Below are positions 8,207 to 45,099 of a stretch of DNA of 64,000 nucleotides, one piece after another (position 1 is the first letter of the stretch; every line of letters begins with the position of its first letter). The DNA comes from a virus. The position numbers and the translations under genes were made by a program. The notes below the pieces were generated by a model. The model ran no database searches and was not told where the DNA came from. It saw only the letters and a program-made list of their open reading frames with translations. Where the stretch lies: IMG/VR virus record IMGVR_UViG_3300025117_000028, positions 126,285-190,284 of that record; one strand, given 5' to 3'.

Positions 8207-9463
8207 TTAAGATACCTCTTCTGTATCTACATAGTCAGCTGATTCTTTAGCTCTTCCTTCTAATACATTAAACTCAAATGACTTATACTTAAGGATATTT
8301 CTTTCTTCGACTCTTAAGCATACTCCCTCTTTAATATGAAGAGGAGTTAATATCGAAGGTGTTTGGCAATGGGTTTCACAACGTTTTACCAAAGAATCAA
8401 TAGAATTTTGTGTCAAAACAAAAGTTTCGAGTTCTGGTACTGGTTTAAGACCAAGTTCTTGGCAACGCTGTTTGACTTGAGGCCAATTTAATTCTATTTC
8501 TTTATCATCTGGAGTTACCTGAACAATACGATAGATATATGCTTCGCATGTTTGATTAGGACAACCATAATGAAATGGCATTGCTTGTAAATGGACATAA
8601 TCAGGGAATAAAGATTTATCTTTTGGTTTTATTGTAATAGGTCCTTGAATGGCCTTTCCGTTAGGCAAATAGCCTACGATTTCGTAATAAAGGATCTCTC
8701 CTTTTCTTAGCCCTGCTGTTTTAATTTTGTTATGCCAATCTTGGCGAAATTGATTAGATCCATAATATCCTGTTCCTTCTGGATTTAATATGGTTCTACG
8801 TGTTCCAGAAATATATTCCCATTTGGAATAAGATAAGTCAAATTTCTCAAGAATTTTTGTCCCCCAAGAGGGTTTATTAATCTTGATATATCCGGTCCTT
8901 GCGCTGGTTCCGTGCAATTTCTCGCTAATTACAATGACTTGTCCTTCTTTCAAAGAATGTAAATTCTTTTGAAGGTGAGTTGTTTCGAAATGTTCTTTTA
9001 ACATTTCGTAAGAAAACTTTTTCTTGTTTTTCTTTTTGTTGGTTGGGCCACTCATTCTTTGCAGAGTGGCAGGAGTATAATACTTTTGACAAATCAATTT
9101 ACCGTTGACAGTATCAATTAAATCTCCTTCATCAAAATCTGTTTTTCCTGTCCAAAATAAAGATTCTATTTTAGTCCAATAGCCATTACTTTTTTCGCCT
9201 CGTAGGGTTAGGGCTCTGACTCTTCTATTGTCCTCGAAAAATCCTCCCATCGGTTCACCTGTGGTAGGATCTTTGCGGTATAATTTATTAATAAGACACA
9301 TTTCATGCGAAAGTTGTCCATCAGGACCAAAGTAAACACCTAAATCTCCTTCTTTTGCATTAGCAAAAATAATAGTTTCGCCACAAACTGTAGCTAATTG
9401 TAATTTATCAGCGTTTGGGTGAGGTCTTACATTTCTTAAGGCTACAACTATTGCCGAATACAT
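8207..9463 (-). CDS. ATP-dependent RNA ligase, DRB0094/Rnl2-like, with N-terminal OB-type domain
   Basis: HPNADKLQL, motif I SEKLHGTS, YYEIVG, KEGVCLR, LKYKS; start MYSAIV behind AAGGAG. Confidence 0.82.
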   Translation of the reverse strand: MYSAIVVALRNVRPHPNADKLQLATVCGETIIFANAKEGDLGVYFGPDGQLSHEMCLINKLYRKDPTTGEPMGGFFEDNRRVRALTLRGEKSNGYWTKIESLFWTGKTDFDEGDLIDTVNGKLICQKYYTPATLQRMSGPTNKKKNKKKFSYEMLKEHFETTHLQKNLHSLKEGQVIVISEKLHGTSARTGYIKINKPSWGTKILEKFDLSYSKWEYISGTRRTILNPEGTGYYGSNQFRQDWHNKIKTAGLRKGEILYYEIVGYLPNGKAIQGPITIKPKDKSLFPDYVHLQAMPFHYGCPNQTCEAYIYRIVQVTPDDKEIELNWPQVKQRCQELGLKPVPELETFVLTQNSIDSLVKRCETHCQTPSILTPLHIKEGVCLRVEERNILKYKSFEFNVLEGRAKESADYVDTEEVS

Positions 9464-9474
9464 AATTTTCTCCT

Positions 9475-9726
9475 TTACAGTATTTCTTTTTGTAGTTTTT
9501 GAAGTTGATAATAAAAGTATTGCCATCTAGAAATATTTTTACCACTTAGTAAATATACCCCCCACTCATATACGGCATTTACTGTATATATTTCATTGGC
9601 TTTTAAATCACTTTTGCCATAATGTTTTTCACGGTTAGAAGAACATGAATAAACAGTACTATCTGTTAGTAATACCTTATCTCCTTTTTGGAATAATTTC
9701 CGATGATCAATTGTTGGACTGTTCAT
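9475..9726 (-). CDS. Small F.IGD.V (KOW/SH3-like) family protein, paralogue of 23762, 25218, 25461
   Basis: FQKGDKVLLTD...Y shared with three other ORFs. Confidence 0.5.
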   Translation of the reverse strand: MNSPTIDHRKLFQKGDKVLLTDSTVYSCSSNREKHYGKSDLKANEIYTVNAVYEWGVYLLSGKNISRWQYFYYQLQKLQKEIL

Positions 9727-24025: not shown

Positions 24026-24859
24026 ATCTCTCCTTAAAACGATAAAGTCTCCCTTCTCTCTCCTGACCACTCTCATCCCTCTAAAGGATAAAAATGCGCA
24101 CAAAATGTTATTATTGTTGATTTTATTGAGGAGAGAAGAAAGGAAGAAATGATTTATTTGAGAGGATGATCCCATAGTTGATCAAACTCTGGTCTCCATC
24201 CTCGGGGAGTTGTTCTGCAATGTAAATGAATGACGATGTCTTTACTTACTGTATGATAACAACGATGCCCTTTAAGATAAGGGCGTGAAAAAGAACCCTT
24301 AGAATTCATTTTGAATTTTGTTGCAGTATCTATATTGGAAACAATTAATGGATTTCTTTTAAGCATACATTTTAAGTATGAATCTCGATCGTCAAGAAAT
24401 GCGCAACTAGCGCTTCTATTAAGATTAAATGATCTCCCTTGCCCCATTAATGAAATTGTAATCAGATTATTACTCATTGTATGAATTTCATGAACGAGTA
24501 ATCGTTCTTTATAATGAGTAAGAAATCTCTTACATTCTATATGGTTACCCTTTACAACAAAGGGTTGAGAATTTTTAGAAAAGCAAATATAAATATGCGG
24601 AGCATCGAATATTCCTTTTTTAAGAGGAAATTCGGCCAGTACTTTATATTGAGGATAATTTTTTCTTTTAGTTTCTTCTTTTAAGACTTGATGGTATAGA
24701 TTTTTTTGTTTTTGAATAAGCATAGTTACTCCAAGAAAATGGGTCAGATGGAGCTTCAGTATGCAGTATTAATCGAAGCCCACCCAACCCGTTATGGAAT
24801 CTTGCCTTCAGTATTTTATAAATATATTAGCGAAGGCAGTATTTCCTTTTTTTTGAAGA

Positions 24860-24930
24860 CGGCATCACTAAGATTCATACTTAGATCTTCTGGTAGACAC
24901 CAGAGGCTCTCTCCTTTGAGCTATGATGCC
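24860..24930 (-). tRNA. tRNA-like gene with non-standard anticodon arm (copy X1)
   Basis: Acceptor GGCATCA/TGATGCC, D stem GCTC/GAGC, TCTGG-TGTCTA-CCAGA (6-nt loop), T arm CTAAG TATGAAT CTTAG. Confidence 0.5.
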
Positions 24931-24938
24931 ATTTTTTA

Positions 24939-25018
24939 TGCCCGAAGTCGGGTTTGAACCGATAGGCTCATTAGCCAGGATATTTTAACCCTGGAGATAC
25001 CATTCCTCCCATTCGGGC
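24939..25018 (-). tRNA. Variant duplicate of tRNA-Leu with remodelled anticodon arm
   Basis: Same acceptor GCCCGAA/TTCGGGC and similar T arm as 25131-25213; CCAGG-GTTAAAATAT-CCTGG arm. Confidence 0.5.
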
Positions 25019-25745: not shown

Positions 25746-25818
25746 TGTGACCGGTGGGAATCGAACCCACATCTTTGGGACCACAACCCAAAATTCTAGC
25801 CGTTGAACTACGGTCACC
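25746..25818 (-). tRNA. tRNA-His(GUG) with genomic G-1, no encoded CCA
   Basis: G-GTGACCG/CGGTCAC-A, TTGGG-TT GTG GT-CCCAA, GTGGG TTCGATT CCCAC. Confidence 0.92.
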
Positions 25819-25827
25819 ATCTATAAA

Positions 25828-26111
25828 AGTAGTTATCAGGTGTGCTATTACGCCAAAGGCCAGTCTACCATTAGTAGGTTAACACCCCAAATTGTCAGTT
25901 TAACTACCTACTTAAACATCCTGACAATCCCATTTTCATGGCTTGAGTCATCTGTTCCGTCGAACAGACGAGCAGTACGCATACAAGCTCAGGTCTTGTT
26001 TTTATTCACTGACGCGCCAGCAAGCTGCCGAACTCTTAAACGCCTTTGCAATGTTAAGGGGCCACTCTTTAAAAGATGGCTGCTTCTAAGCCCACTTCCC
26101 GGATAACCACT
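25828..26111 (-). ncRNA. Structured ncRNA containing a split mimic of the 23S rRNA uL11-binding domain (H43-H44)
   Basis: GGAAGTGGGCTTAGAAGCAGCCATCTTTTAAAGAGTG ... GCGTAATAGCACAC, enclosed by a 10-bp terminal stem AGTGGTTATC/GATAACTACT. Confidence 0.8.
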
Positions 26112-26139: not shown

Positions 26140-26520
26140 TCACGGCCACACACAACGCGCGTAGAAGTCGATAGTCTTATTGTCGTAGCGGACGTAGCCG
26201 TAGTTGAAATTCACGTCCCATGCGTAGTCGGTGTAGCCGACGAGGAACGACGACGACCAGAATATCTTTGGATACATTGATATAATAATATTTTTCAAAT
26301 TAGAATCAAAGAGTTGAATGAGTTCACCTCTTTCGGGAAGTCTCCCTCCTTGTTCTTTTGCCCAATCCATGGCTTCTTGCCAAGCCATTGGTTTTTCAGC
26401 AATTGGTCCCCATTTCAGTCCTGTTTTAGGATCTTTTTGCCAAGTTGTTTCTTTAACCGGTTGATTGTGTTCGCATTCTTGACATAGTTCCTGTAGTTTT
26501 TCAAGTATTTTACAAGTCAT
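26140..26520 (-). CDS. DUF1566 protein, DGR target with intact variable repeat (26140-26262)
   Basis: MTCKILEKLQELC leader, FWSSS..AWDVNFNYGYV...YARCVWP; NNC codons; conserved downstream TTTTTGAAAATTTGAAACT. Confidence 0.9.
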   Translation of the reverse strand: MTCKILEKLQELCQECEHNQPVKETTWQKDPKTGLKWGPIAEKPMAWQEAMDWAKEQGGRLPERGELIQLFDSNLKNIIISMYPKIFWSSSFLVGYTDYAWDVNFNYGYVRYDNKTIDFYARCVWP

Positions 26521-29175: not shown

Positions 29176-29697
29176 TTATTGTGGCCATTCTTCGTCCTTT
29201 TCGAGGTCGATTTTGGTTGGTTCAGGAACGTATGGACCAGTGATCGTTTCGACGATATCTTTGGCGTCTTTCAAATGTGTGTTGGTGAGTTGCTTGTAGT
29301 TTTTGATCCAGATGATCTTTTTGTTGCGTGCCTCACCGTAGAAGTAGTCGTAGAGTGTTTTTGCGATCAGTTTGTCGGTTGCGGTTGAGGGGGCGAGTGT
29401 CATGATCAAGCTGATGAGTAACGGGTATTGGTTGTCTGTAATAGCGTTGCTTATTCTTTTTTTGAGGTTTGTGATTGTCTGGTAGTATTGGTCACCTTTT
29501 TTTTCTTCTTGTATTAGCGAGTATTTGAGTGATTCGATGACATCTTGTTGGCTGTCAATTTTATCGAGTAAAGTTTTGTTTTGTTCGGGAACTTTGTTGG
29601 AAATGAGTTCTTCATTGGGCCAGAATCCATGCTCCTTGAGCGTGTTGGTGATCTCTTGAATGAGCGAGAGGATGTTTTGTGCTTGGGCGATGTCCAT
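29176..29697 (-). CDS. Coiled-coil protein with C-terminal ribosomal bL12 (L7/L12) CTD-like domain
   Basis: NKKIIWIKNYKQLTNTHLKDAKDIVE resembles bL12 KIAVIK.VR..TGLGLKEAKDLVE. Confidence 0.55.
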   Translation of the reverse strand: MDIAQAQNILSLIQEITNTLKEHGFWPNEELISNKVPEQNKTLLDKIDSQQDVIESLKYSLIQEEKKGDQYYQTITNLKKRISNAITDNQYPLLISLIMTLAPSTATDKLIAKTLYDYFYGEARNKKIIWIKNYKQLTNTHLKDAKDIVETITGPYVPEPTKIDLEKDEEWPQ

Positions 29698-34691: not shown

Positions 34692-37600
34692 TTATGTCAA
34701 AGACGAATAACCGAGGAGAGCTTTTACTTTTTCAGCGAGCGAGCGCCAGCGAGCGAGCGCTGGTTTCTCTTTTTGAGTTTTGCTACTTTTCTTTTTTGTA
34801 GGGTTGGATACGGAGCGAATAGGTAGAGTCTCAGCCCTATAGGTGTAGGATAGCGACGAGCGAGCGCCAGCGAGTGAGGAGCGGTTGAACGAGAACCGAG
34901 GAGAGGTTACGGAGCGGGAGGAAGGGTGCGGTGACGGAGCGGCATTATATTCTGTATCGGTACTGGTACTTGTTTGCTTTAGAATATTGTTATAATCCAT
35001 TTCATTAAGAATCTTGGCGGCCATAAATACTGTTATGTGCTGCTTCTTTGCACTTACCAATAAATCTTTTACTCTATCCCATTGGGGTTTAACATTTACA
35101 AAAGGAGGTAAAACCATTAACTTTCCTCTAACTTTATAGTGTCGGATTACGTTGTAGTTTCTCCATAAAGCTGTTTGATATATTTTACTTTCATCTGTAT
35201 ATCGTTGACACATAGCTACTGCCCACATTTCTGCTATTAGTTCCAGTATGCCTACAGATTCTGGCGTTTCTGAATCTGTTGTAAAGTCTTGCCTCCAATA
35301 ATGGTTGGCCAATCTATCTAAATGATGTCCAACCTCATGGAAGAGAATTCTCTTGGTTGGGTCAGTTGCCAAGTCAATTGTTCTCATGGCAGGGTTATAA
35401 GCTCCATCGCAAAGGGTTAGGTATGAATTGATCCTCACCCTAAAGCCATAGTCATCAGCAAGAGATCTTGCCATATCTATAGTTATGGGGTCGTTTTCCC
35501 CTAACTTGTTAAGTTCTTGCTTGAGTGCAAGAATTTCTTCGGGACTCAATCCTTCTGAGCCATGGTAATTACGAGAGCGGCTCCACTCTGTCCAAGCTTC
35601 AAAAATCTCTTGATCTAAAGTAGAATCCATATGTCCCTCCGAGTAAAAGTCTTCGTCCAAAAAATCTTCATCTTCGTCGATCTTATCTTTTATTTGAGGA
35701 GTGTTAGGGTCTACTATATATTTCTTGACCTTCTTCAGTTGTTGAGCAAAGTCTTTAGAAGCAGAAGTGATCCGATTGCTCATGTCAAAACACTGAACTA
35801 CCTTGCCTGTCTGGACACTCACTTGCGCGCAGACAGTTCCTTTGCGGAAAAATAAGTCGCGCGAGTCTTTGTAACTTCCTAAACAATGACGCATCTCGGA
35901 TCCTATCTTTACCATGTCTAATTTTGTCTTGATCCTAAGATCTTCCCAACTTGGAGGCAGGGTCTTATTACATGGCATAACTTCATTGGGCATTGGAATA
36001 TTTGTAGAGAGATCGTTCTCTATTGCACGCTGATGATTCCAGATTGCCGTTTCTAATATTCTGACGGGAGATCCATTGTATCTGCGAGTACCAGGAATAT
36101 CGTCATTTAAGAGTTGAGCACCATCTTTAATAAACCTTATTAGCATATCCATCTTTTTCATAGATGGGATTGCTTTAACATGCAAGACTTCATTGCAGAA
36201 TTGTTTGTATGCAGTCTTGCTAGAAATAACCTTTAGCCCTATAACAGTAGCTCTTATCTCACGGGGAGTAAGCAAAGAGTAATCTGATGAAAGGTCGTAG
36301 TATCTAGTAGAATTAGTTAGAAGCCATACATAGTAATCATGTCTACTATTAAGAGCTTCAGACGGGATATCTATGCTAGGAATGGGTAAAAACCGCAACT
36401 TCTCTATGTTCTTAGGAGCGTGTTTTCCAAAAGGCATCTTGTTGCTTGCATAAAGAGAATCCCTTAGAGCTACTGTATCTATTAACCACCGAGCATAACC
36501 CGCTGGGACTTTCAATAAGTCCGTAGGATAGTCGAGGTCCCACATTGCTACATAGCAATCCTTAAACGGCTTCTGTGTCCGACAGGAAACTTGCAGTAGT
36601 TCTTTAAAACTAAGAGGAGAGAAACTATTCAATATAGAGGCCGCCCATTTAATATGGAAGGTCCTTATGAGAGGGAAGTCTTTTGGGAGTCGGCCTTTTT
36701 CCTTATCCTTTTTCATTCCTATATAGTATGAATTCTTATTTCTTACCATTGGATTATGTCCTAGATCTTTGTGCCTCCAGTGTCCAAAGAAGTCCTTTTG
36801 TTCGAGGTTGCTGGTGGTTAAGTCAACGTAAATGTCCTTTTCTAAAAGCACTAGAATTTTGTAGAGTGGTATATCTTTATCTGTAAGGGCTTTTACCTGA
36901 TCTTCTAGGCAAGATTCTTTTTGGCCCTCACAAATAGGGAACCAATAATATCTAGTATTTCGTAGGTGAGTATACATACACAAAGCCCAATACTTAACAT
37001 TGGCCTGTTCGGGAGGAGTTGGAGTATTAGGATGTTCATCTCCAATAAACAATCCATGTTTATTGAGTTGTTCAATTATCTTACTAATCTGATGTCCCTC
37101 CGAATTGAGTGAGATGCCAGCATTAAATAACTTATTTACATCAGTTTCGCCGGTTTCAATCTGATGCTCATAAGCCCTCTTGAGGATTAAGCCCATTTCT
37201 TTTCCTTGCTTATATCCCCTAGAGACTAAGTGTCTACCCATTAAGATAGGCTCGATTTTCCCTTCTCCGAACGATTCGAAATAGCCAAATGCCATTTGAG
37301 AAGGAATATGTGGATCGTTTAAGGAATAACCTTTCCGGCCGCAAGAATCTGCCTTAGACATTAATCCAATAACATCCAAGCGGATTCTATTGTGGAGACG
37401 ACGCCAAGCTGCAACTCCTGCCCCTGATTGGTGGAATTGACCGGGCATCATATGATTTCCAACAATGAGTTCAACCTTATTAATAAGATCGACTTCATTG
37501 GTCATAGATTCCATGAATTGACGAGCAATAGGTATACCTACTTGGTCATGCCCGTATGCCGTCAAAGTTTCGCGATCAGTGGTCTGTGGTTTACCTACGT

Positions 37601-40600
37601 CATGAAGCATAGCTCCAAACATGTAAGCAAGCTTCCAGGGCTCTGGTACTTGATCCTTGAGAATTGCCGCATTATCCAATACCATCAAGGTATGGACCCA
37701 AGCATCACCCTCAGGATGGTGCTCAGGATTTTGCTGGCAACCGATCAAGGCTTCCAGAGCCAAGAACCACTTAATCCAACCACAATCCTTGAGGAATTCT
37801 AATCCCATAGAAGGCTTATTAGCTTTCAGTAGGAGTTTCTTGAACTCTTCAAAGATCCTCTCCTTAGGCAGGGTAGGATATTCTGATTGCATCGAGCGAC
37901 ATAACTCGATGGTCTCAGAGGCTACCTTCTTACCTTTACGAGGCAGAAGTTGCATGATGCGCAAAACGCGCAATGGATCTTCAATGAAAGTTTCTGCGCA
38001 AGTGGCGCGCAAAATCCCTTCATTCAAATCCTTCATTCCACCGAAGTGATCTACAACTTCTCCGGTATGCAAATTTACATACATAGAGTTAATTGTAAGA
38101 TCCCTTCTCTTCCCCGCTTCTTCAGGAGTAAGATTGGGGAGTAACTCAACTTGGAAACCTTTGTGGCCTACACCACAACGATTCTCCAGTCGAGGAACAT
38201 TAAGATCTATGTCAGTAGTCCCGACTTTGACCTTAATAATTCCAAAGGCAGCACCAACCATATCTGCCTTATATCCCCATTCTTCCAGGTAATCTTGGAG
38301 TTGTTTCATTGAAAGTCCATAGACCTCAATGTCCCAATCCTTGATCTGTCGACCTTGGATGCGGTCAATGACTGCTCCTCCGATGAGGAGAGTCTTTGCT
38401 TTGACAGACCAAAGGTCTTGAAGCAAAACTTCCACATCACCAAGGTCAACCCCAAAGTCTTCGTCATGACCTTCACTGGCCATTGAGACGGTGATTTCAG
38501 TCATTTCTTCACCCTCCCAATCCCAAGTCTCTTCAGTCATGGTCAACCCCATACGATTAACTAATGACTTCACGATTGGGGAGGAAGTGCTCCTACAGTC
38601 CATTGTGACAGTCTTCACATTATTCTGCTTGAGTACCCGCATACAGCGAGTGATCAAGCGAGCAACGCAAGAGGAAGGAGATCCTGGAATTTTTGCCAGG
38701 TCAGCAATCTCTGCCTCATCTCCTTGGATGCTTCCAAGCAGATAAGCAGAATCGCCCTCTGTCATAGCCAAGATCTCACTGGGTTCACACTCCAGATATT
38801 CACAGATGCCTTCAAGGCTGAACTCTTCTGCCTTGTAGGATCGCATGAATTCTGGATATGCCAATTCCTCGATCCGAACGATCAGATCGAAGTTGATATC
38901 TTGGTGTCCCTCCGACGCCAGTTTCACGACACCCTCAGCGGTGTCGGTATAGTTAACTGGGGCCGATACCGGGAGACGAGTGACCTGGTACTCCTCTTGC
39001 AGCTTCTCGGAATACTTATTGTATCCGAGTCCGCAATAGACGGCGCCGATGCCGTCGGCCCTCACGGATTTTACTGCCCTCTTGAAGAGGTCATAAACCG
39101 TGGGGTCGCCACTTGCTCCTTCGATGTTATCAATAACAAGGATGCGGTTAGATACCCACACCCACGCCTGAGCAACAAGGCGTTTGCTATTGAATACCAC
39201 CCAGAAACAGCCATCTTTGCTGGCCATTCCATGGATAGCACACTCCGAGGCAAATCCTTCGTAGCTCTGACAACAGCCAGTATACCTACCAAGGAATGGT
39301 CCCCGGGGATCATTAACATCAAGAGTCTTCAGGGTGTAAGTCCCTTCAGAGACATTAACCCAAGGGATACTCTTGACTGGAGACTTATTGAACCAGTACT
39401 GAGTCAGCGTATTGAAGTCGCTAACTCCAGCCTGATAAGCCTCTGTCGCTAACGGGAGTAGTTCTGGAACTACTTTCCCGTAGGAGTTCTCAACCCCCTT
39501 CCTACAGATCTCTGCCTGTAGATCTTCTTTCTTGAGGAGTAGATACTCCTCAATGGGAATATCCTCAGTCCAAGACCGGAGGGGTTGCAACCAGTCCAGT
39601 TTGGAACAGTTGCGGAACTTCCAGTATAACTGGAAGATTTCCTTCTTTTCCAAAAGGTACACCTCGGTTTCCATTGTCTGGACTCCGACATCGTGTATTC
39701 TGGAGAGAAAGAGATCCACTCCTTCCTTGCCGTATTTAGCATATTTTGACAACATACGGGCAACGATAGCCGTCTGGTTGTCTTCCAGCAAAGATTTCCA
39801 ACCAAATTGGAAAAACCTCCAGTTCGATTTCAGGGCCACAATCTCCTTCCTGTCGCGAATGCCATCTATGATAGCTTTCGCCTGAGGAACACGCCCGAAG
39901 GTATTCATCCAATACGCTTCGACGTGATGTGGATTGTCTCTCCAGTTAAGCGCTCTCTTATAAGCGAGAACGCTTTGGGGGAGTTGACCATCCGTTCCCC
40001 AAGAGATGAGATTCCTAATGGAGAGAATCTCCACCCTGGAGATGTCTCCCAGAGTTTCAAGAGGAAGACCGGCATGTAACAATGTACCGGCCAAGAAGAT
40101 CCTCTCAAGCTCCGAGTACATTTGCATTGCCTGCCAGGCAACCAAATGGTCATCAAGGAATGAAAGAGACATCTCTAGTACTTTTTCTCCTTGCAAGGGC
40201 GTTGTTGCCCAATGGAAGGTTTCTCTCAGCATTTTCGCGATGCCAAGATACTTCCTCCTAGAGATGGGAGAGTCTATTTTGCTGGCTTTTTCTATGTTAA
40301 ACCAGCAACCTAAATTACTCCCATTGTATCCTTCGGCAATAAGCCAGTCAATATATTCCGAGGACAAATTTTGGGTCGTATATATCCCGTTTGTCAACCC
40401 TGGAATATAGTAACTGTAAATTGCCGAGACTACAGTTGCTCTGGTCTCAGAAGGACAGAGATATTCATCTGTCCTCTTTATCTCAGACAGGATATAGTCC
40501 CTTAGTTCCAGGGAGGGGTTGAGGACTATTCCCTTCTGCCAGACCAAGGCAATCTGTTGCCCTGGAGTAACGGTGTCCAAAGGAGAATCGATCTCCTCGA

Positions 40601-43600
40601 TATCCTCCTTGGACAACCCCTTACTCCTTAAGGGACGATTATGGATATGTTCACTCCCGTAAACAATCCAGACATCCCTAAAGACATGGATGTCATTCTC
40701 GTGCCCTTCACTGGCCATAGATGCCAAGGCGTTGAATTCCTCCTCGGACATCTCGGTCAGCCCACCGTGAGGCGGCTCAGGCGAACGACCTTTCTCGTTC
40801 GCGATGAGCACGTTCTCAGCGATGACGGCGTACTCCCCGCCGAACAGGTGGAACAGGTCACACCTGGTTTGAGGAGCAACTCCGATGTTCCGGAGGTCCT
40901 CAATCAGGTCAACCTGCTTCTCCGTCCGCTTCACAGCGTGGAGGGCCGCCTCATATTTTGCCCAACGCCTATCGTTGAGCAAAGCGAGAGCACCAATGGA
41001 CCGCAACACCTCGTCAGTCATGACGAAGGCGTAGAGGCCCATGGTGTCACGAGCCCGGAACCAGCGGAGAAGCTGGCGAGTCGTGAGACTACCGAGCATT
41101 TGGTGGTACATATCGTCCCACAACGCTTTCGCATGGAGACTCGTACCATCCTCAGCTCGGTTGACATATTCCAACCCTCCCTTGTGGAACCGATAACCCT
41201 TCATGTGGTTATACAGTTCGGGGAGGTCGAAGGACTGCACCGCCCGAAGAGTCCGGCGGAAGTACTTCTCGTTGGACTGCACCCCATGCTTGAGGGCAGA
41301 CACGAGATACCCCGCCAACTCGTTTCCGAGTGGGGCGTCCTTGTCAGTGGCCAGCGCATCGATGATAGGATCGAGCGCCAACCCTAACTGGCACATGAAT
41401 TTCGCTGCATCCTCTACCTTGACTTTCGCCAAAGTAGGCTCCGCAGTTTCCGCCAATTGGAACGCCTTCGCAACAAAGACACGTTGGAGATACGTGGCCT
41501 TGTCATCCTCGACATTTGTCCAGACTTCGAACTCACGTCCGTAGTCCTCTTGAGTACTCCTACTATAGGAGTTCAGGACTTCCAGACAACGTCCGAACTG
41601 GATCTCCGCGTCGATAGCCTTGAGCATCTGCCAAGGTTCGAGTGGGTTGGAGTTTGTCTCTTCCAGGAAGTTTTGCATCATTTCATTGATGCGCTCCTGG
41701 AAGTCGGGATCGTAACCATATTTGTTGCCATCAAAAACAACACGGTTACCCTGGTTCTCGATCTCGGTGATCTCCTGATCGGAGAAGATCCTATGCAACC
41801 ATGCCCGTTTGATTTGGACATGGTAGATCGAGAGGATGTCCACGACCTCACGGACCAGAGAGACGTTACTCTCTTTGATTATCTTCATCATTGCGATGAA
41901 GACTGGCCCGGTGAGTTTCTCGTTCCAGAGGACACCGAGAGGTGAGTCTCCCAGTTTGGTCTGAATGACCTTGCTGGTTGCCCAAGGCAGCACCTTAAGC
42001 AACTCGGAAGCGGTGTGTTTCTTGAAGCCGAGTACGGCATCATAGAAACGGCGACCGTCATTGGTCTTCGCTCCCAAGATTGCTTCCCTGTGCTGCCAGG
42101 GATTCAGCCTCTTGACTTGGACGGACTCATCTCCGCCCTCGAAGGAATTCAGGTCCGACAACCAGAACTCCTTCTCGTATTCGACGACAACAAGACGTCC
42201 CTTATCATCGTCGATGTACTTCTTGAACCCACGGACGGTACCAATGATGGCACCAAGTTCGCGGGTCTTCGGATAACACCGAGGAATGTCCCGACAGACA
42301 CCGTACTCATCGAAGAGAACTTCGTTGAGCCGGGTGAGATTCCCACGGTGTTCGCGGACGGCAGCGTCGAAGATCGCCTGTTCGTTGGCGTCTTCACTAC
42401 CTTCCTCAACCTCGTGAAGGATCTCACTGTTGTCGGGATCTTCCTCGTCGGGAACTTCCGACTTAATGGCGTTAACAACCCGATTCCACGGATTGTTGAT
42501 GCCTGCCAAGTCACGGAAGCTCTCATCCCACAGAATGTCAAAGTTGCTCATGGTAATTCTCCTATGAGCGTTAACCCGGTTACCCACCGGGATTGGGTCC
42601 TCTTTATGCCCCTCGGATTTGAAGGACGGCTTCGTCAATGGCTGCAAACGAGGCGCAACCAATAACTTACCATTCCCCTCGAACACCGTAATCGAGCCTT
42701 CCGACTCGCTATGGTGTCCGATTCCAATCGCCGACATGTTGAGTTCCTCTTTGTAGAGATACTCAAACCTCCGGCTACCGTTCGCTGCCTCGGGACGGTC
42801 CGACCACATGTCAATGGGCCGGATCCAACGTCCATAGTCGCCATACATCTTCATGTAGACGACATACGATTCGCCGAACATCCCCTCGGCAAACCCGAGG
42901 ACCTGGTATTCGTTACCCTTGAAGTGGCGATAGATGCCACCACGGATAACGTCATGCCCTTCCGAGCACAGGTCTAATTCCTCCATATCTAACTCAGCAT
43001 CGATCATGTTGATCTCCGACTGAGCGGCTTTGAGGACAACTGGATCTTCAGAGAAGTCCAACTCCCTCTGGAGGAACGTCAACCGCTTTTGAACCTGCTC
43101 TTGGCGACTGTCGGTCGTCACCAAGTACAGGGAGCGGTGTCCCTCGGAGGCCAGGACTGCGTCCTGATACTTACCATTCCTACGATGGGCTTCGTACCAG
43201 GCTTCAGCCTTCTTCCAGGAGAGGTCACGGACGACCAGACCTTGCCTGGTCCATCCGGACACACCTGCCCGGAAGTTCATCCAAGCGTCCGCAGCCACTT
43301 CGCTGCTGCCACGCAGGATGTGGCCAATCTCGTGGAGGAGGTCAGCCACGTTGGCGTCGGCGCGGTAGTAAGCAATGCCACCGGTCAGCCTGGCGGGAGC
43401 GTCAATGCTCTCGCTGTGCTTGAAGGTGACGTTGTACTTCCTGCCCAGGCGGTTGGCATTGGCCTGAAGTTTGGCCACGGCCTTGGCCTCAACCTTCTTG
43501 GCGAAGGTGAGGTTGGCGACGGCCTTCTCCCAAGACTGACGAGCCTTGGTGAAAGCCAGGGCCAAACCCTTGACTTCCGTCTTCCTTTGACGGAGGCAGA

Positions 43601-44474
43601 TCAAGAGCTTCCTGGTCTTTGTCAAGGCCAGGGTATTGACCCTGATCTCCCTGCGGAGATTGACCACCTTCTTCTCGGCTTTGATCATGCCGAGGTCGTC
43701 GTACCAGGCGTTGGCGAACTCCTGGACAGCGATTTCCTTGGCATTGACCAGAGCACTCTTGCTCTCCTCAACGCCAATGGTCAGGGACTTGACCATGGCC
43801 ATGGTCTCCCTGATTTTGGAAGAGATCTTGGGCAAGGTAGTGCCGGAGACCTCCAGGTTGATGGAAGTCATATCCATGACTTCTTTGATCTTGACGGTGT
43901 CGCCGGTTTGCGGATTGCGAACGGTTCGGGCGGCCCTCTTCTTCACCGTCCAGGTACCGAAGCCGGGATTGGTGAACCGCTTTGTCACCTTGGCGAGGTT
44001 AACCTCGCCCCCCCAGGTGAGGGTGGGGAGGGCGGCGACCATCTTCATCACCTTGGTGATCTTCTGGGTGCTCTTGACGCTGCTGATGCGTCGTTGACGC
44101 CTCACCCAGCGGCTCTCTTTCGTGATCTTGGAGGCCGGGATGACCTCCTTGATCACGGTCTTGGAGGCCGGGATGTCGATAACCGCGCCGGTCTGGGGAT
44201 TCCTGCTGCGCCGTCGCATGATCTGGTCTTGGGCCTTAGCCCTCAACCAGATTTCGTTCTCGATATCCTTCCAGGTGTGGCACGCCTTGGTCAACGTTAT
44301 CATGTGGCCACGGCTGACACTTAACCCGTTGAGAGCCGCAATGGCTCTCTTCACCTTGACCCAACTCCGGACCGAGGCCCGGGTGTCGAACAGGACGTCG
44401 CACACTTCGTTGATCACGGTCTTGGTCAGACCGTGATGTTTAAGGGTGTTACTTAAGACTAATTGCTGGTTCAT
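34692..44474 (-). CDS. Giant polyvalent/polyprotein (~3,260 aa): HU-like arms, zincin, DUF1653, PcfJ/GNAT-like modules, CCA-adding nucleotidyltransferase-HD, C-terminal zincin; SEGH-delimited
   Basis: Start MNQQL behind GGAGG; RNPQTG x2; HEIGH 43320-43334; GIYRHFKGNEY; GCCQ..AQAWVW..IDNIE; GGAVID/DWDIE/RRDLTIN/EDPLR/LHDVGKP; MRHCLGSY; HEVGH 35325-35339. Confidence 0.85.
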   Translation of the reverse strand: MNQQLVLSNTLKHHGLTKTVINEVCDVLFDTRASVRSWVKVKRAIAALNGLSVSRGHMITLTKACHTWKDIENEIWLRAKAQDQIMRRRSRNPQTGAVIDIPASKTVIKEVIPASKITKESRWVRRQRRISSVKSTQKITKVMKMVAALPTLTWGGEVNLAKVTKRFTNPGFGTWTVKKRAARTVRNPQTGDTVKIKEVMDMTSINLEVSGTTLPKISSKIRETMAMVKSLTIGVEESKSALVNAKEIAVQEFANAWYDDLGMIKAEKKVVNLRREIRVNTLALTKTRKLLICLRQRKTEVKGLALAFTKARQSWEKAVANLTFAKKVEAKAVAKLQANANRLGRKYNVTFKHSESIDAPARLTGGIAYYRADANVADLLHEIGHILRGSSEVAADAWMNFRAGVSGWTRQGLVVRDLSWKKAEAWYEAHRRNGKYQDAVLASEGHRSLYLVTTDSRQEQVQKRLTFLQRELDFSEDPVVLKAAQSEINMIDAELDMEELDLCSEGHDVIRGGIYRHFKGNEYQVLGFAEGMFGESYVVYMKMYGDYGRWIRPIDMWSDRPEAANGSRRFEYLYKEELNMSAIGIGHHSESEGSITVFEGNGKLLVAPRLQPLTKPSFKSEGHKEDPIPVGNRVNAHRRITMSNFDILWDESFRDLAGINNPWNRVVNAIKSEVPDEEDPDNSEILHEVEEGSEDANEQAIFDAAVREHRGNLTRLNEVLFDEYGVCRDIPRCYPKTRELGAIIGTVRGFKKYIDDDKGRLVVVEYEKEFWLSDLNSFEGGDESVQVKRLNPWQHREAILGAKTNDGRRFYDAVLGFKKHTASELLKVLPWATSKVIQTKLGDSPLGVLWNEKLTGPVFIAMMKIIKESNVSLVREVVDILSIYHVQIKRAWLHRIFSDQEITEIENQGNRVVFDGNKYGYDPDFQERINEMMQNFLEETNSNPLEPWQMLKAIDAEIQFGRCLEVLNSYSRSTQEDYGREFEVWTNVEDDKATYLQRVFVAKAFQLAETAEPTLAKVKVEDAAKFMCQLGLALDPIIDALATDKDAPLGNELAGYLVSALKHGVQSNEKYFRRTLRAVQSFDLPELYNHMKGYRFHKGGLEYVNRAEDGTSLHAKALWDDMYHQMLGSLTTRQLLRWFRARDTMGLYAFVMTDEVLRSIGALALLNDRRWAKYEAALHAVKRTEKQVDLIEDLRNIGVAPQTRCDLFHLFGGEYAVIAENVLIANEKGRSPEPPHGGLTEMSEEEFNALASMASEGHENDIHVFRDVWIVYGSEHIHNRPLRSKGLSKEDIEEIDSPLDTVTPGQQIALVWQKGIVLNPSLELRDYILSEIKRTDEYLCPSETRATVVSAIYSYYIPGLTNGIYTTQNLSSEYIDWLIAEGYNGSNLGCWFNIEKASKIDSPISRRKYLGIAKMLRETFHWATTPLQGEKVLEMSLSFLDDHLVAWQAMQMYSELERIFLAGTLLHAGLPLETLGDISRVEILSIRNLISWGTDGQLPQSVLAYKRALNWRDNPHHVEAYWMNTFGRVPQAKAIIDGIRDRKEIVALKSNWRFFQFGWKSLLEDNQTAIVARMLSKYAKYGKEGVDLFLSRIHDVGVQTMETEVYLLEKKEIFQLYWKFRNCSKLDWLQPLRSWTEDIPIEEYLLLKKEDLQAEICRKGVENSYGKVVPELLPLATEAYQAGVSDFNTLTQYWFNKSPVKSIPWVNVSEGTYTLKTLDVNDPRGPFLGRYTGCCQSYEGFASECAIHGMASKDGCFWVVFNSKRLVAQAWVWVSNRILVIDNIEGASGDPTVYDLFKRAVKSVRADGIGAVYCGLGYNKYSEKLQEEYQVTRLPVSAPVNYTDTAEGVVKLASEGHQDINFDLIVRIEELAYPEFMRSYKAEEFSLEGICEYLECEPSEILAMTEGDSAYLLGSIQGDEAEIADLAKIPGSPSSCVARLITRCMRVLKQNNVKTVTMDCRSTSSPIVKSLVNRMGLTMTEETWDWEGEEMTEITVSMASEGHDEDFGVDLGDVEVLLQDLWSVKAKTLLIGGAVIDRIQGRQIKDWDIEVYGLSMKQLQDYLEEWGYKADMVGAAFGIIKVKVGTTDIDLNVPRLENRCGVGHKGFQVELLPNLTPEEAGKRRDLTINSMYVNLHTGEVVDHFGGMKDLNEGILRATCAETFIEDPLRVLRIMQLLPRKGKKVASETIELCRSMQSEYPTLPKERIFEEFKKLLLKANKPSMGLEFLKDCGWIKWFLALEALIGCQQNPEHHPEGDAWVHTLMVLDNAAILKDQVPEPWKLAYMFGAMLHDVGKPQTTDRETLTAYGHDQVGIPIARQFMESMTNEVDLINKVELIVGNHMMPGQFHQSGAGVAAWRRLHNRIRLDVIGLMSKADSCGRKGYSLNDPHIPSQMAFGYFESFGEGKIEPILMGRHLVSRGYKQGKEMGLILKRAYEHQIETGETDVNKLFNAGISLNSEGHQISKIIEQLNKHGLFIGDEHPNTPTPPEQANVKYWALCMYTHLRNTRYYWFPICEGQKESCLEDQVKALTDKDIPLYKILVLLEKDIYVDLTTSNLEQKDFFGHWRHKDLGHNPMVRNKNSYYIGMKKDKEKGRLPKDFPLIRTFHIKWAASILNSFSPLSFKELLQVSCRTQKPFKDCYVAMWDLDYPTDLLKVPAGYARWLIDTVALRDSLYASNKMPFGKHAPKNIEKLRFLPIPSIDIPSEALNSRHDYYVWLLTNSTRYYDLSSDYSLLTPREIRATVIGLKVISSKTAYKQFCNEVLHVKAIPSMKKMDMLIRFIKDGAQLLNDDIPGTRRYNGSPVRILETAIWNHQRAIENDLSTNIPMPNEVMPCNKTLPPSWEDLRIKTKLDMVKIGSEMRHCLGSYKDSRDLFFRKGTVCAQVSVQTGKVVQCFDMSNRITSASKDFAQQLKKVKKYIVDPNTPQIKDKIDEDEDFLDEDFYSEGHMDSTLDQEIFEAWTEWSRSRNYHGSEGLSPEEILALKQELNKLGENDPITIDMARSLADDYGFRVRINSYLTLCDGAYNPAMRTIDLATDPTKRILFHEVGHHLDRLANHYWRQDFTTDSETPESVGILELIAEMWAVAMCQRYTDESKIYQTALWRNYNVIRHYKVRGKLMVLPPFVNVKPQWDRVKDLLVSAKKQHITVFMAAKILNEMDYNNILKQTSTSTDTEYNAAPSPHPSSRSVTSPRFSFNRSSLAGARSSLSYTYRAETLPIRSVSNPTKKKSSKTQKEKPALARWRSLAEKVKALLGYSSLT
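37104..38465 (-). other. tRNA nucleotidyltransferase (class II CCA-adding type) plus HD domain embedded in the polyprotein
   Basis: LIGGAVID, KDWDIEV, RRDLTINSM, EDPLRVLR, ERIFEEF, HHPEGD.WVHT, LHDVGKP, GHD; flanked exactly by SEGH motifs. Confidence 0.9.
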
Positions 44475-45099
44475 ATTTCCTCCATAAAGAGGGTTGACTT
44501 CTGGCCCCGAACCATTAGGTACCCAGAAGTTTGGGCATCTTGTGCCCGCCGGGGTTATGGACTCCCGGCAGCCTCGTGATTCTGGCTCACGTCGCCCTGT
44601 TTCGGATTCTCCACCGCTCATCATGAGGGAGAAATCCGCAACCACTCCTCCTTGAGTGGAGATATATGAGACGATTTTTTCTTCGGGGTTCGTCTCAAGC
44701 CCCTATTTTTCACCAGGAAGAGGGGGTAAGACCTAAGATGAGTGACTAGACGGTCTCACTCACCCTCCCTTCCCGGTGAAAACGTGGGGTTACTCTCATG
44801 CCTCTCCGGTAGCGCCCCAAAACTTCCGGAGAGAGGGGGGTGGGCATCGAACGCCGATGTTTCTCACCCTCATACTTCACTGGGTACTCCTTCTAAATTA
44901 TTTCCAGATTTATTTTCATATAGGAAAATTACAGATTCTTCCCCTTCTAAATTTATTTCAAACTTTATTTTCCGTAGGAATTTTTCACTCATGGGATCCT
45001 TCTCTAAAAGCATTCCATCCATGTAATTTGAATCTTGCCTCTCTCTATTTTCATTCATTCCCTACACTTGGGAATATCAAAAAATATTTTTCCTGGGTA

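Follow-up and report, generated by a model that had tools for sequence, protein, structure and literature searches.

The closest described counterpart of the RNA considered here is a part of the ribosome. The GTPase-associated centre (GAC) of 23S rRNA, which comprises the top of helix 42 and helices 43 and 44 (E. coli positions 1051-1108), is the minimal domain bound by the protein uL11 and by thiostrepton. In isolation, the 58-nt domain binds uL11 specifically, as seen in the structures 1HC8 and 1MMS cited in PMC6239185, and L11 has been used in gel shifts with a 95-nt rRNA fragment (PMC1635324). We analyzed a 64,000-nt stretch of viral DNA (the window) from the IMG/VR record IMGVR_UViG_3300025117_000028, in which positions 25828-26111 of the minus strand specify a 284-nt RNA whose ends rebuild helices 43 and 44 on a closing stem, that is, the GAC. 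The 5' half of this RNA is near-identical to the bacterial consensus of the GAC, and the likeness extends to identical helices, the 1082:1086 lone pair, U1060 and A1088, the 1071 and 1072 triples, and the pattern of covariation (positions are given in E. coli numbering). The phage RNA differs from the ribosomal domain in being free-standing, in having helix 44 opened by an additional helix between 1090 and 1091, in carrying an invariant UUU linker, in replacing U1101 with an A, to which U1090 is joined by Watson-Crick pairing at the new junction, in having a closing stem that is free in sequence and lacks the conserved core of helix 42, and in tolerating changes at A1067 and A1070.

Three other systems resemble this RNA in part. 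Ribosomal-protein (r-protein) leaders, such as the L10 leader (RF00557), are extra-ribosomal RNAs that imitate the rRNA site of a protein and are a precedent for r-protein binding, but they are partial mimics that act in cis in cellular r-protein mRNAs, whereas the phage RNA lies among tRNAs and copies a whole domain. The ROOL and GOLLD RNAs are likewise phage-associated, tRNA-adjacent, probably co-transcribed and structured, and have no settled function (PMC5737381); they have no sequence or structure similarity to the GAC-mimic RNA and are unlike rRNA. The pseudo-ToxI RNA of phage PhiTE (PMC3475682) is a phage RNA that mimics a host RNA to disarm a host protein, but it copies the repeat of an antitoxin, serves against one defence system and belongs to one phage lineage, whereas the GAC mimic copies a universal ribosomal domain and occurs in many phages. 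A viral RNA that copies a functional centre of the ribosome and stands free of rRNA is not found among these closest known systems. The family described below is absent from Rfam 15 and we found no description of it in the literature, though the motif could sit unnamed in the catalogue of a 2023 survey of viral RNAs.

A copy of the GTPase-associated centre in phage DNA

A sequence-only reading of the window had proposed a split, GAC-mimicking RNA at this place, and every string of letters it quoted is present on the minus strand. The parts of the element, all on that strand, are as follows.

26100-26111 (minus): closing stem, 5' strand, which replaces the top of helix 42 and pairs with 25828-25839
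26064-26099 (minus): GAC copy, 5' half, equivalent to E. coli 1055-1090, with helix 43, the 1067 loop, the 1082:1086 lone pair and GAGU (1087-1090)
25858-26063 (minus): structured insert of class B, 206 nt, closed by a GGCC/GGCC helix
25948-25971 (minus): predicted 10-bp hairpin within the insert, present in the minimum-free-energy and centroid folds
25891-25928 (minus): hairpin of the pseudoknot domain, stem 25928-25921 with 25898-25891, loop bearing pseudoknot strand 1 (25912-25906)
25873-25879 (minus): pseudoknot strand 2, complementary to 25906-25912
25854-25857 (minus): UUU linker and one purine (G), family-specific and not found in rRNA
25840-25853 (minus): GAC copy, 3' half, equivalent to E. 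coli 1091-1104, with the tip of helix 44 and the 1095 loop, followed by ACAC
25828-25839 (minus): closing stem, 3' strand, 11 pairs and one C.U mismatch with 26100-26111

Both the 1067 loop and the 1095 loop are intact, and the 1058:1080 pair is A-U. The 10-bp closing stem described earlier is contained in the longer stem listed here, which is free in sequence, like those of the family, and with its 11 pairs and one mismatch exceeds 8 bp. One claim had to be corrected: the insert had been thought to take the place of positions around 1089-1090, but nothing is replaced, since the GAGU of the bacterial consensus is retained in the 5' half and the insert and linker are placed between 1090 and 1091.

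To what extent the element is rRNA can be read from its Rfam match. The bacterial large-subunit (LSU) rRNA model (LSU_rRNA_bacteria, RF02541) aligned through its positions 1097-1144 to the 5' half of the element with 20.5 bits (E 3e-4), well short of the 50-bit gathering score, and on its two sides the element has a lectin-fold gene and a tRNA, not rRNA helices. Bacterial LSU rRNA was rejected on the grounds of this score and of the lack of any continuation into helices 41/42 and 45. No LSU rRNA was found anywhere else in the viral record by a search that detects it in 13 of 14 control genomes, which extends to the whole record the earlier remark that no rRNA flanks the element. This record (125,446 bp, about 59% complete, 36% G+C) encodes a major head protein, a portal, a large terminase, a DnaE-type polymerase, a ribonucleotide reductase, an RNA ligase and a CCA-adding-enzyme domain. 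The phage genes, together with the lack of LSU rRNA, indicate that it comes from a large tailed phage and that the element is not ribosomal contamination.

When the window and three members carrying inserts of class A (see below) were searched against Rfam 15, at gathering scores and at E values up to 10, the only matches were tRNAs and the partial LSU match. Hence, the comparison with Rfam proposed by the sequence-only reading yielded no full-length match to a described RNA family; nor did the search find a second rRNA-like stretch, a sarcin-ricin loop or any family resembling the inserts of the window or of class A. For the window RNA, no r-protein leader, intron, ROOL or GOLLD was matched at E values up to 10. 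A group I or group II intron in an rRNA exon was rejected because no intron family was matched, inserts are as short as 25 nt and no rRNA extends past the 50-nt core. An r-protein leader was rejected because no r-protein gene adjoins the element, the record showed no gene for uL11 or uL10 and no leader was matched.

Genuine rRNA does turn up in phage records. Paenibacillus phage Pd_22F and two archaeal contigs from metagenome-assembled genomes, at one stage counted as members without an insert, were withdrawn as genuine 23S rRNA, and with Pd_22F the only Gram-positive host was dropped. In this phage (L279, MZ092003.1) a bacterial 23S segment of the H41-H45 region lies at about 83.9-84.0 kb of 86.4 kb, and it is either host sequence or an artefact of assembly rather than a member of the GAC-mimic family. 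Such cases, and the short open reading frames (ORFs) that cross the window element on the plus strand (for example 25840-26106, 88 aa), would agree with the view that there is no functional RNA here at all, and that the element is captured or contaminating rRNA, intron-bearing rRNA, a site that works as DNA (an attachment site, for instance) or a gene for a small protein. We consider this very improbable, and to the extent that sequences can tell, the covariation and the breadth of the family refute it. The record holds no other rRNA, the searches with the element matched no intron or other Rfam family at E values up to 10, the UUU linker, A1101 and the insert helix are foreign to rRNA, compensatory changes are pervasive at the RNA pairs, and strand and tRNA context are constant across unrelated phages. 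In addition, the insert varies freely in length, which excludes a conserved reading frame.

The family and selection on its fold

A BLAST search with the region turned up this core in cultured phages of unrelated kinds, in DNA that bears no annotation. A strict search pattern built from the 5' half of the window element, to which the window has 0 mismatches, matched 21 IMG/VR loci and four contigs among about 186,000 representative prokaryote genomes (two of the four were later recognized as archaeal 23S rRNA), and a pattern for the 3' half matched at least 118 IMG/VR stretches. Altogether, 95 unique elements were parsed, of which 93 were left once two mis-parsed duplicates had been dropped. 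A covariance model of the family (R1) was built from 41 members, leaving out the window and its nearest relative; it matched the window RNA with 100.2 bits (E 1.9e-31) from position 1 to position 165 of its 165 positions. Genuine rRNA scores 49-62 bits on this model. Searching with R1 gave 103 matches in 100 loci, including exactly one copy in each of the complete genomes of Aeromonas phage 4_4572, Pseudomonas phages UNO-G1W1 and pf16, Cronobacter phage GAP32 and Pectobacterium phage CBB, and it also confirmed the elements of Pseudomonas phage Milchi, Xanthomonas phage XacN1, Ralstonia phage RSP15 and Acinetobacter phage ME3. The cultured carriers belong to unrelated lineages and the G+C content of the R1 matches ranges from 0.33 to 0.65. 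Usually there is one element per genome, and the record of the window has one copy. The sequence-only reading had taken the element for a single oddity; instead, the matches define a family of well over a hundred predicted phage RNAs, which is phage-specific and spread over many unrelated phages.

Hardly any record of a cultured carrier annotates the element. In that of Pseudomonas phage Milchi (L283, 829-960) a 'hypothetical protein', probably a spurious ORF, is annotated across the RNA on the opposite strand. The only match in an isolate assembly (L027, 591-872, plus strand; QZEE01000002.1, 'bacterium D16-76') is a full element followed by three tRNAs on the same strand, and the 180-kb scaffold that carries it may be a large phage or prophage. 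Two viral contigs (L100, 3845-4337, minus strand; L121, 1118-2363, plus strand) hold two nearby copies each, with differing inserts, and one copy in each has the rare U.(U-A) form of the 1072 triple. The 1058:1080 pair is G-C in two Pseudomonas phages but U-A in the single bacterial 23S segment that was compared, and U-A is also the pair in the rRNA of Pseudomonas itself. Since the phage copy thus differs from the host GAC at variable positions, its recent capture from host rRNA is unlikely.

The proposed structure was written onto an alignment of 41 sequences (A1), with slid pairings as controls. In this alignment 93.3% of the cells were paired (37-58% in the slid controls) and the covariation score was 0.58 (0.16 or less in the slid controls), a value reached by 0 of 500 shuffles; both sides change in 18 of the 24 pairs. 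These figures, together with the 93 members of the family, answer the call of the sequence-only reading for homologues and covariation. The 1058:1080 pair, whose A-U form in the window had been interpreted as a compensatory swap of U-A, is paired in all 95 sequences and occurs as six pair types (U-A in 37, A-U in 27, G-C in 27), in agreement with that interpretation. The closing stem of the family is about 8 bp long (8-9) and of free sequence, with many pair types, and its first 8 positions are paired in 69-97% of cases, compared with 24-59% in slid controls.

Covariation is not confined to the helices. The lone pair 1082:1086 covaries (U-A in 58, C-G in 23, A-U in 10) and is correlated with position 1056, and the triple 1072.(1092-1099) changes as a unit: 91 members have C.(C-G), two independent ones have U.(U-A), and there is no genuine exception. 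Covariation of this triple is also known in true rRNA. U1060 and A1088 are invariant in the family. As helices, lone pair and triple all covary, the pattern of substitutions indicates that the tertiary fold of the GAC, and not its helices alone, is under selection in the free-standing phage RNA. The sequence-only reading had argued for a maintained structure from one pair in one sequence; across the family the argument extends to tertiary contacts.

Because the search patterns fix some positions, each half was scored only in members detected via the other half. Scored in this way, G1059, U1060, G1063, G1071, C1079, A1084, A1085 and G1087 to U1090 were conserved in 68 of 68 members, and, among members detected via the 5' half alone, the UUU linker, G1091 to U1094 and A1098 to C1100 were conserved in 24 of 24 and A1095 in 23 of 24. 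Positions 1096 and 1097 are variable in the family. A1067 was kept in 74% and A1070 in 81% of the members detected via the other half; both bases are conserved in the Rfam bacterial LSU consensus, and A1070 has been called invariant in rRNA (PMC6239185). The contrast between the strict core and these two positions shows that the fold is kept more strictly than the factor-facing bases.

This contrast bears on the proposal that the RNA is a sink or platform for EF-G, EF-Tu, IF2 or a RelA-tRNA complex, in this phage perhaps together with a bL12-like protein. The GAC is a docking site of translation factors, and EF-G reportedly binds an oligonucleotide copy of the GAC domain (Munishkin and Wool, 1997). 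However, the factor-facing bases are the least conserved of the core, and the RNA lacks the sarcin-ricin loop, which makes up the other half of the factor site. The bL12-like candidate is an orphan protein of 173 aa encoded at 29176-29697 (minus strand), about 3 kb upstream of the RNA on the same strand. Its residues 110-157 weakly resemble helices 4-5 of the C-terminal domain of bL12 (L7/L12), which are reportedly the helices that contact translation GTPases (Helgstrand and colleagues, 2007). Half of the domain is covered, the score against PF00542 is 22 bits, under the cut-off of 25.9, and PDB bL12 chains are matched with E values of 0.03 to 1. A single-sequence AlphaFold model had a pLDDT of 39 and was unusable. 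Moreover, no homologues of the protein were found, and the match is absent in the four other carriers checked. The protein may thus be weakly regarded as a lead in this phage only, and we rate a role as a factor sink as quite unlikely.

Inserts and genomic neighbourhood

The inserts range from 25 to 365 nt in length in the family, with a median near 135, and always have a covarying helix of 3-4 bp at their base; in the window this is the GGCC/GGCC helix, which the sequence-only reading had seen as the boundary of the insert. All-against-all BLAST comparison sorted the inserts into dozens of classes, among which class A accounts for about a fifth of the members, most of the others being singletons. 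In class A (L002 at about 1620-1665 and about 20 other loci) the insert ends in a conserved motif of about 30 nt with a 3-bp hairpin and a GNRA-like loop. In 32 of 95 members, drawn from several classes, the insert has a short GGUA-purine-purine motif close to its 3' end, compared with a rough chance expectation of about 5.

The window insert has the architecture of class B, which counts seven lineages, that of the window among them, and is shared with L005, the L041 group, L128, L192, L209, L214 and L226. Four of these (L192, L209, L214 and L226) were new members obtained by a metagenome scan with a 15-base pattern of the class-B 3' signature, which matched at least 120 stretches, mostly by chance. 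The possible pseudoknot between 25912-25906 and 25879-25873 that had been pointed out in the window has compensatory changes in six other lineages, so that the seven lineages have seven different complementary versions at homologous columns. In an alignment of class B (A3), 83% of the cells were paired, compared with 29-42% in slid controls, and the covariation score was 0.74, compared with 0.21 or less. Both sides change in 14 of 15 pairs (8 of 8 in the hairpin, which is 82% paired, and 6 of 7 in the pseudoknot). RNAalifold independently selected the pseudoknot helix and extended it by an invariant 4-bp pairing, and it proposed additional covarying helices in the 5' part of the class-B insert. 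Together, these comparisons indicate that the predicted pseudoknot is a conserved feature of class-B inserts. The 7-bp helix noticed earlier elsewhere in the insert falls inside the predicted 10-bp hairpin at 25948-25971, which appears in both fold predictions; this region aligns poorly to the other members of the class.

Inserts of such diversity, 25-365 nt long and in dozens of classes, at least two of which (A and B) are themselves conserved structures, and one of these with a covarying pseudoknot, could suggest that the insert is the working part, and that the GAC copy is only a stable, nuclease-resistant scaffold or a protein handle for RNA modules. Nevertheless, members with a plain 25- or 32-nt hairpin as the insert retain the full core, and a scaffold needs neither the conservation of base triples and loop bases nor a fold identical to the ribosomal site. 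The existence of the minimal members means that the core must carry the common function, and we give the scaffold proposal little chance of being correct.

In the window, the RNA lies between the following two features.

25746-25817 (minus): tRNA-His(GUG), found by ARAGORN and Rfam (67.4 bits), 10 nt downstream of the RNA
26146-26164 (minus): terminator-like hairpin and T-run at the end of the Lcl_C gene, from a consensus scan only, marking the start of the non-coding stretch

The position directly upstream of tRNA-His on the same strand thus stands as described, with a 10-nt gap, and it is typical of the family. A tRNA lies within 500 nt of 51 of the 95 elements; the tRNAs at this distance number 141 on the strand of the element and 0 on the opposite strand, and about a fifth of the elements have a tRNA no more than 20 nt away on either side, as if they were a further gene of the array. 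A promoter scan found no sigma-70-like promoter between the terminator-like hairpin and the RNA. The upstream Lcl_C gene (26140-26520, minus strand; Pfam E 8e-14) encodes a C-type-lectin-fold protein.

Protein-coding neighbours are not shared. No protein family recurs within 3 kb of the 95 loci, the best being present at 7 of 95. No uL11 (PF00298), uL10 (PF00466) or RelA/SpoT (PF04607) was found in the record of the window, the only one searched for RelA/SpoT; uL11 was not found in five complete carriers (GAP32, CBB, pf16, 4_4572 and UNO-G1W1), nor uL10 in four (GAP32, CBB, pf16 and 4_4572). With no recurring neighbour protein and no uL11 or uL10 found, a partner of the RNA must come from the host.

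Other RNA-related genes were noted in the window and in one further carrier. The RNA ligase (8207-9526, minus strand; phrog_968, E 2e-59) forms a tRNA-repair toolkit with the CCA-adding domain. This domain, a tRNA nucleotidyltransferase domain, occupies residues 2084-2495 of a single frame of 3317 codons (34692-44645, minus strand), which also has a small DNA-binding-like domain near its N-terminus and is of unusual size for a phage protein with a CCA-adding enzyme. Two adjacent tRNA-like genes at 24858-25018 (minus strand) have abnormal anticodon loops in ARAGORN (a 2-base and a 4-base 'anticodon'), and only one of them is scored by the Rfam tRNA model; in L027, too, the element is followed by an odd tRNA of this kind. 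tRNA-Ile(UAU) is present twice in the window. In Xanthomonas phage XacN1 (L282, 793-1030, plus strand) the element is directly 3' of a gene annotated as 2'-5' RNA ligase.

A possible decoy for uL11

The isolated GAC is a specific uL11 site of high affinity that is recognized by its fold, and the phage RNA keeps a strict core with a relaxed 1067 loop. From this combination we arrive at the tentative proposal that the RNA serves outside the ribosome as a trans-acting GAC decoy and binds the uL11 of the host, a proposal we put at somewhat below even chances. In this mechanism, a stable non-coding RNA would be transcribed and processed, probably jointly with the neighbouring phage tRNAs. Its ends would fold into the GAC domain, with the variable extra domain projecting from helix 44, and the folded copy would capture host uL11 away from the ribosome. 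Binding would then alter the action of uL11 during infection, for example by a loss of RelA activation. uL11 is required for RelA activation. Expression of the RNA, its binding to uL11 and a benefit to the phage are all points that we infer from sequence comparison.

Several considerations weigh against this proposal. A1095 and most of the helix 44 loop are conserved as in rRNA, beyond the strict needs of the fold, which hints at a ligand that reads the loop. As a sponge, the RNA would be up against ribosomes in the tens of thousands, in which uL11 is held cooperatively with uL10; stoichiometry is therefore a concern, and a benefit to the phage from removing uL11 is speculative. Moreover, the invariant UUU linker and the elaborate, conserved inserts go beyond what uL11 binding explains. 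It is for these reasons (stoichiometry, unclear benefit, helix 44 loop, linker and inserts) that our confidence in the uL11 decoy is held at this level. The suggestion made earlier that the RNA might also bind the uL10-bL12 stalk is the weakest. uL10 depends on nearly all of helix 42, including its conserved core (PMC1635324), and the phage RNA has only a generic closing stem of 8-9 bp without this core. Binding of uL10 nevertheless keeps a small probability, because this protein contacts mostly the backbone.

The near-ribosomal state of the helix 44 loop is also what would be expected if the RNA were a decoy or pseudo-substrate for an agent that attacks the GAC, such as a host defence effector, a competitor toxin or a thiopeptide, and shielded the ribosomes that the phage needs. 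A toxin with exactly such a target exists, since Tre23 ADP-ribosylates bases 1095-1098 of 23S rRNA in helix 44 (PMC8661411). The RNA also co-occurs with phage tRNAs and tRNA-repair genes, namely the RNA ligase and CCA-adding domain of the window record and the 2'-5' RNA ligase of XacN1. Phage sets of tRNA and RNA-repair genes are commonly read as protecting the translation apparatus. On the other hand, 1096 and 1097, which are inside the Tre23 target, are variable, and a decoy would be poor protection against a catalytic enzyme unless bound as an inhibitor. Thiopeptides penetrate poorly into Gram-negative bacteria such as the hosts of the cultured carriers, and we know of no anti-phage system directed at the GAC. 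Protection against such an attacker therefore seems unlikely to us; the factor-sink and insert-scaffold proposals are less well supported still.

Leaving open which ligand is captured, we favour, with some confidence, the broader view that the RNA is a portable imitation of a ribosomal centre, present in many unrelated large phages, that would capture uL11, a translational GTPase or a GAC-directed toxin, and to which interchangeable inserts would add lineage-specific functions. If this is true, the family would be a new class of viral RNA, in which rRNA is mimicked, where the mimicry known so far is of tRNA, antitoxin RNAs or promoters. Phages would then manipulate translation or the stringent response with an imitation piece of the ribosome, a strategy that we did not find described. 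The family would also supply a minimal GAC that occurs in nature and has been tested by evolution, in dozens of insert variants and with compensatory changes that report on its fold. With carriers among isolated phages of Pseudomonas, Cronobacter, Pectobacterium, Aeromonas, Acinetobacter, Ralstonia and Xanthomonas, the question is directly testable, and the RNA would offer a handle on the role of uL11 and the GAC in infection and might reveal host defences that attack the GAC.

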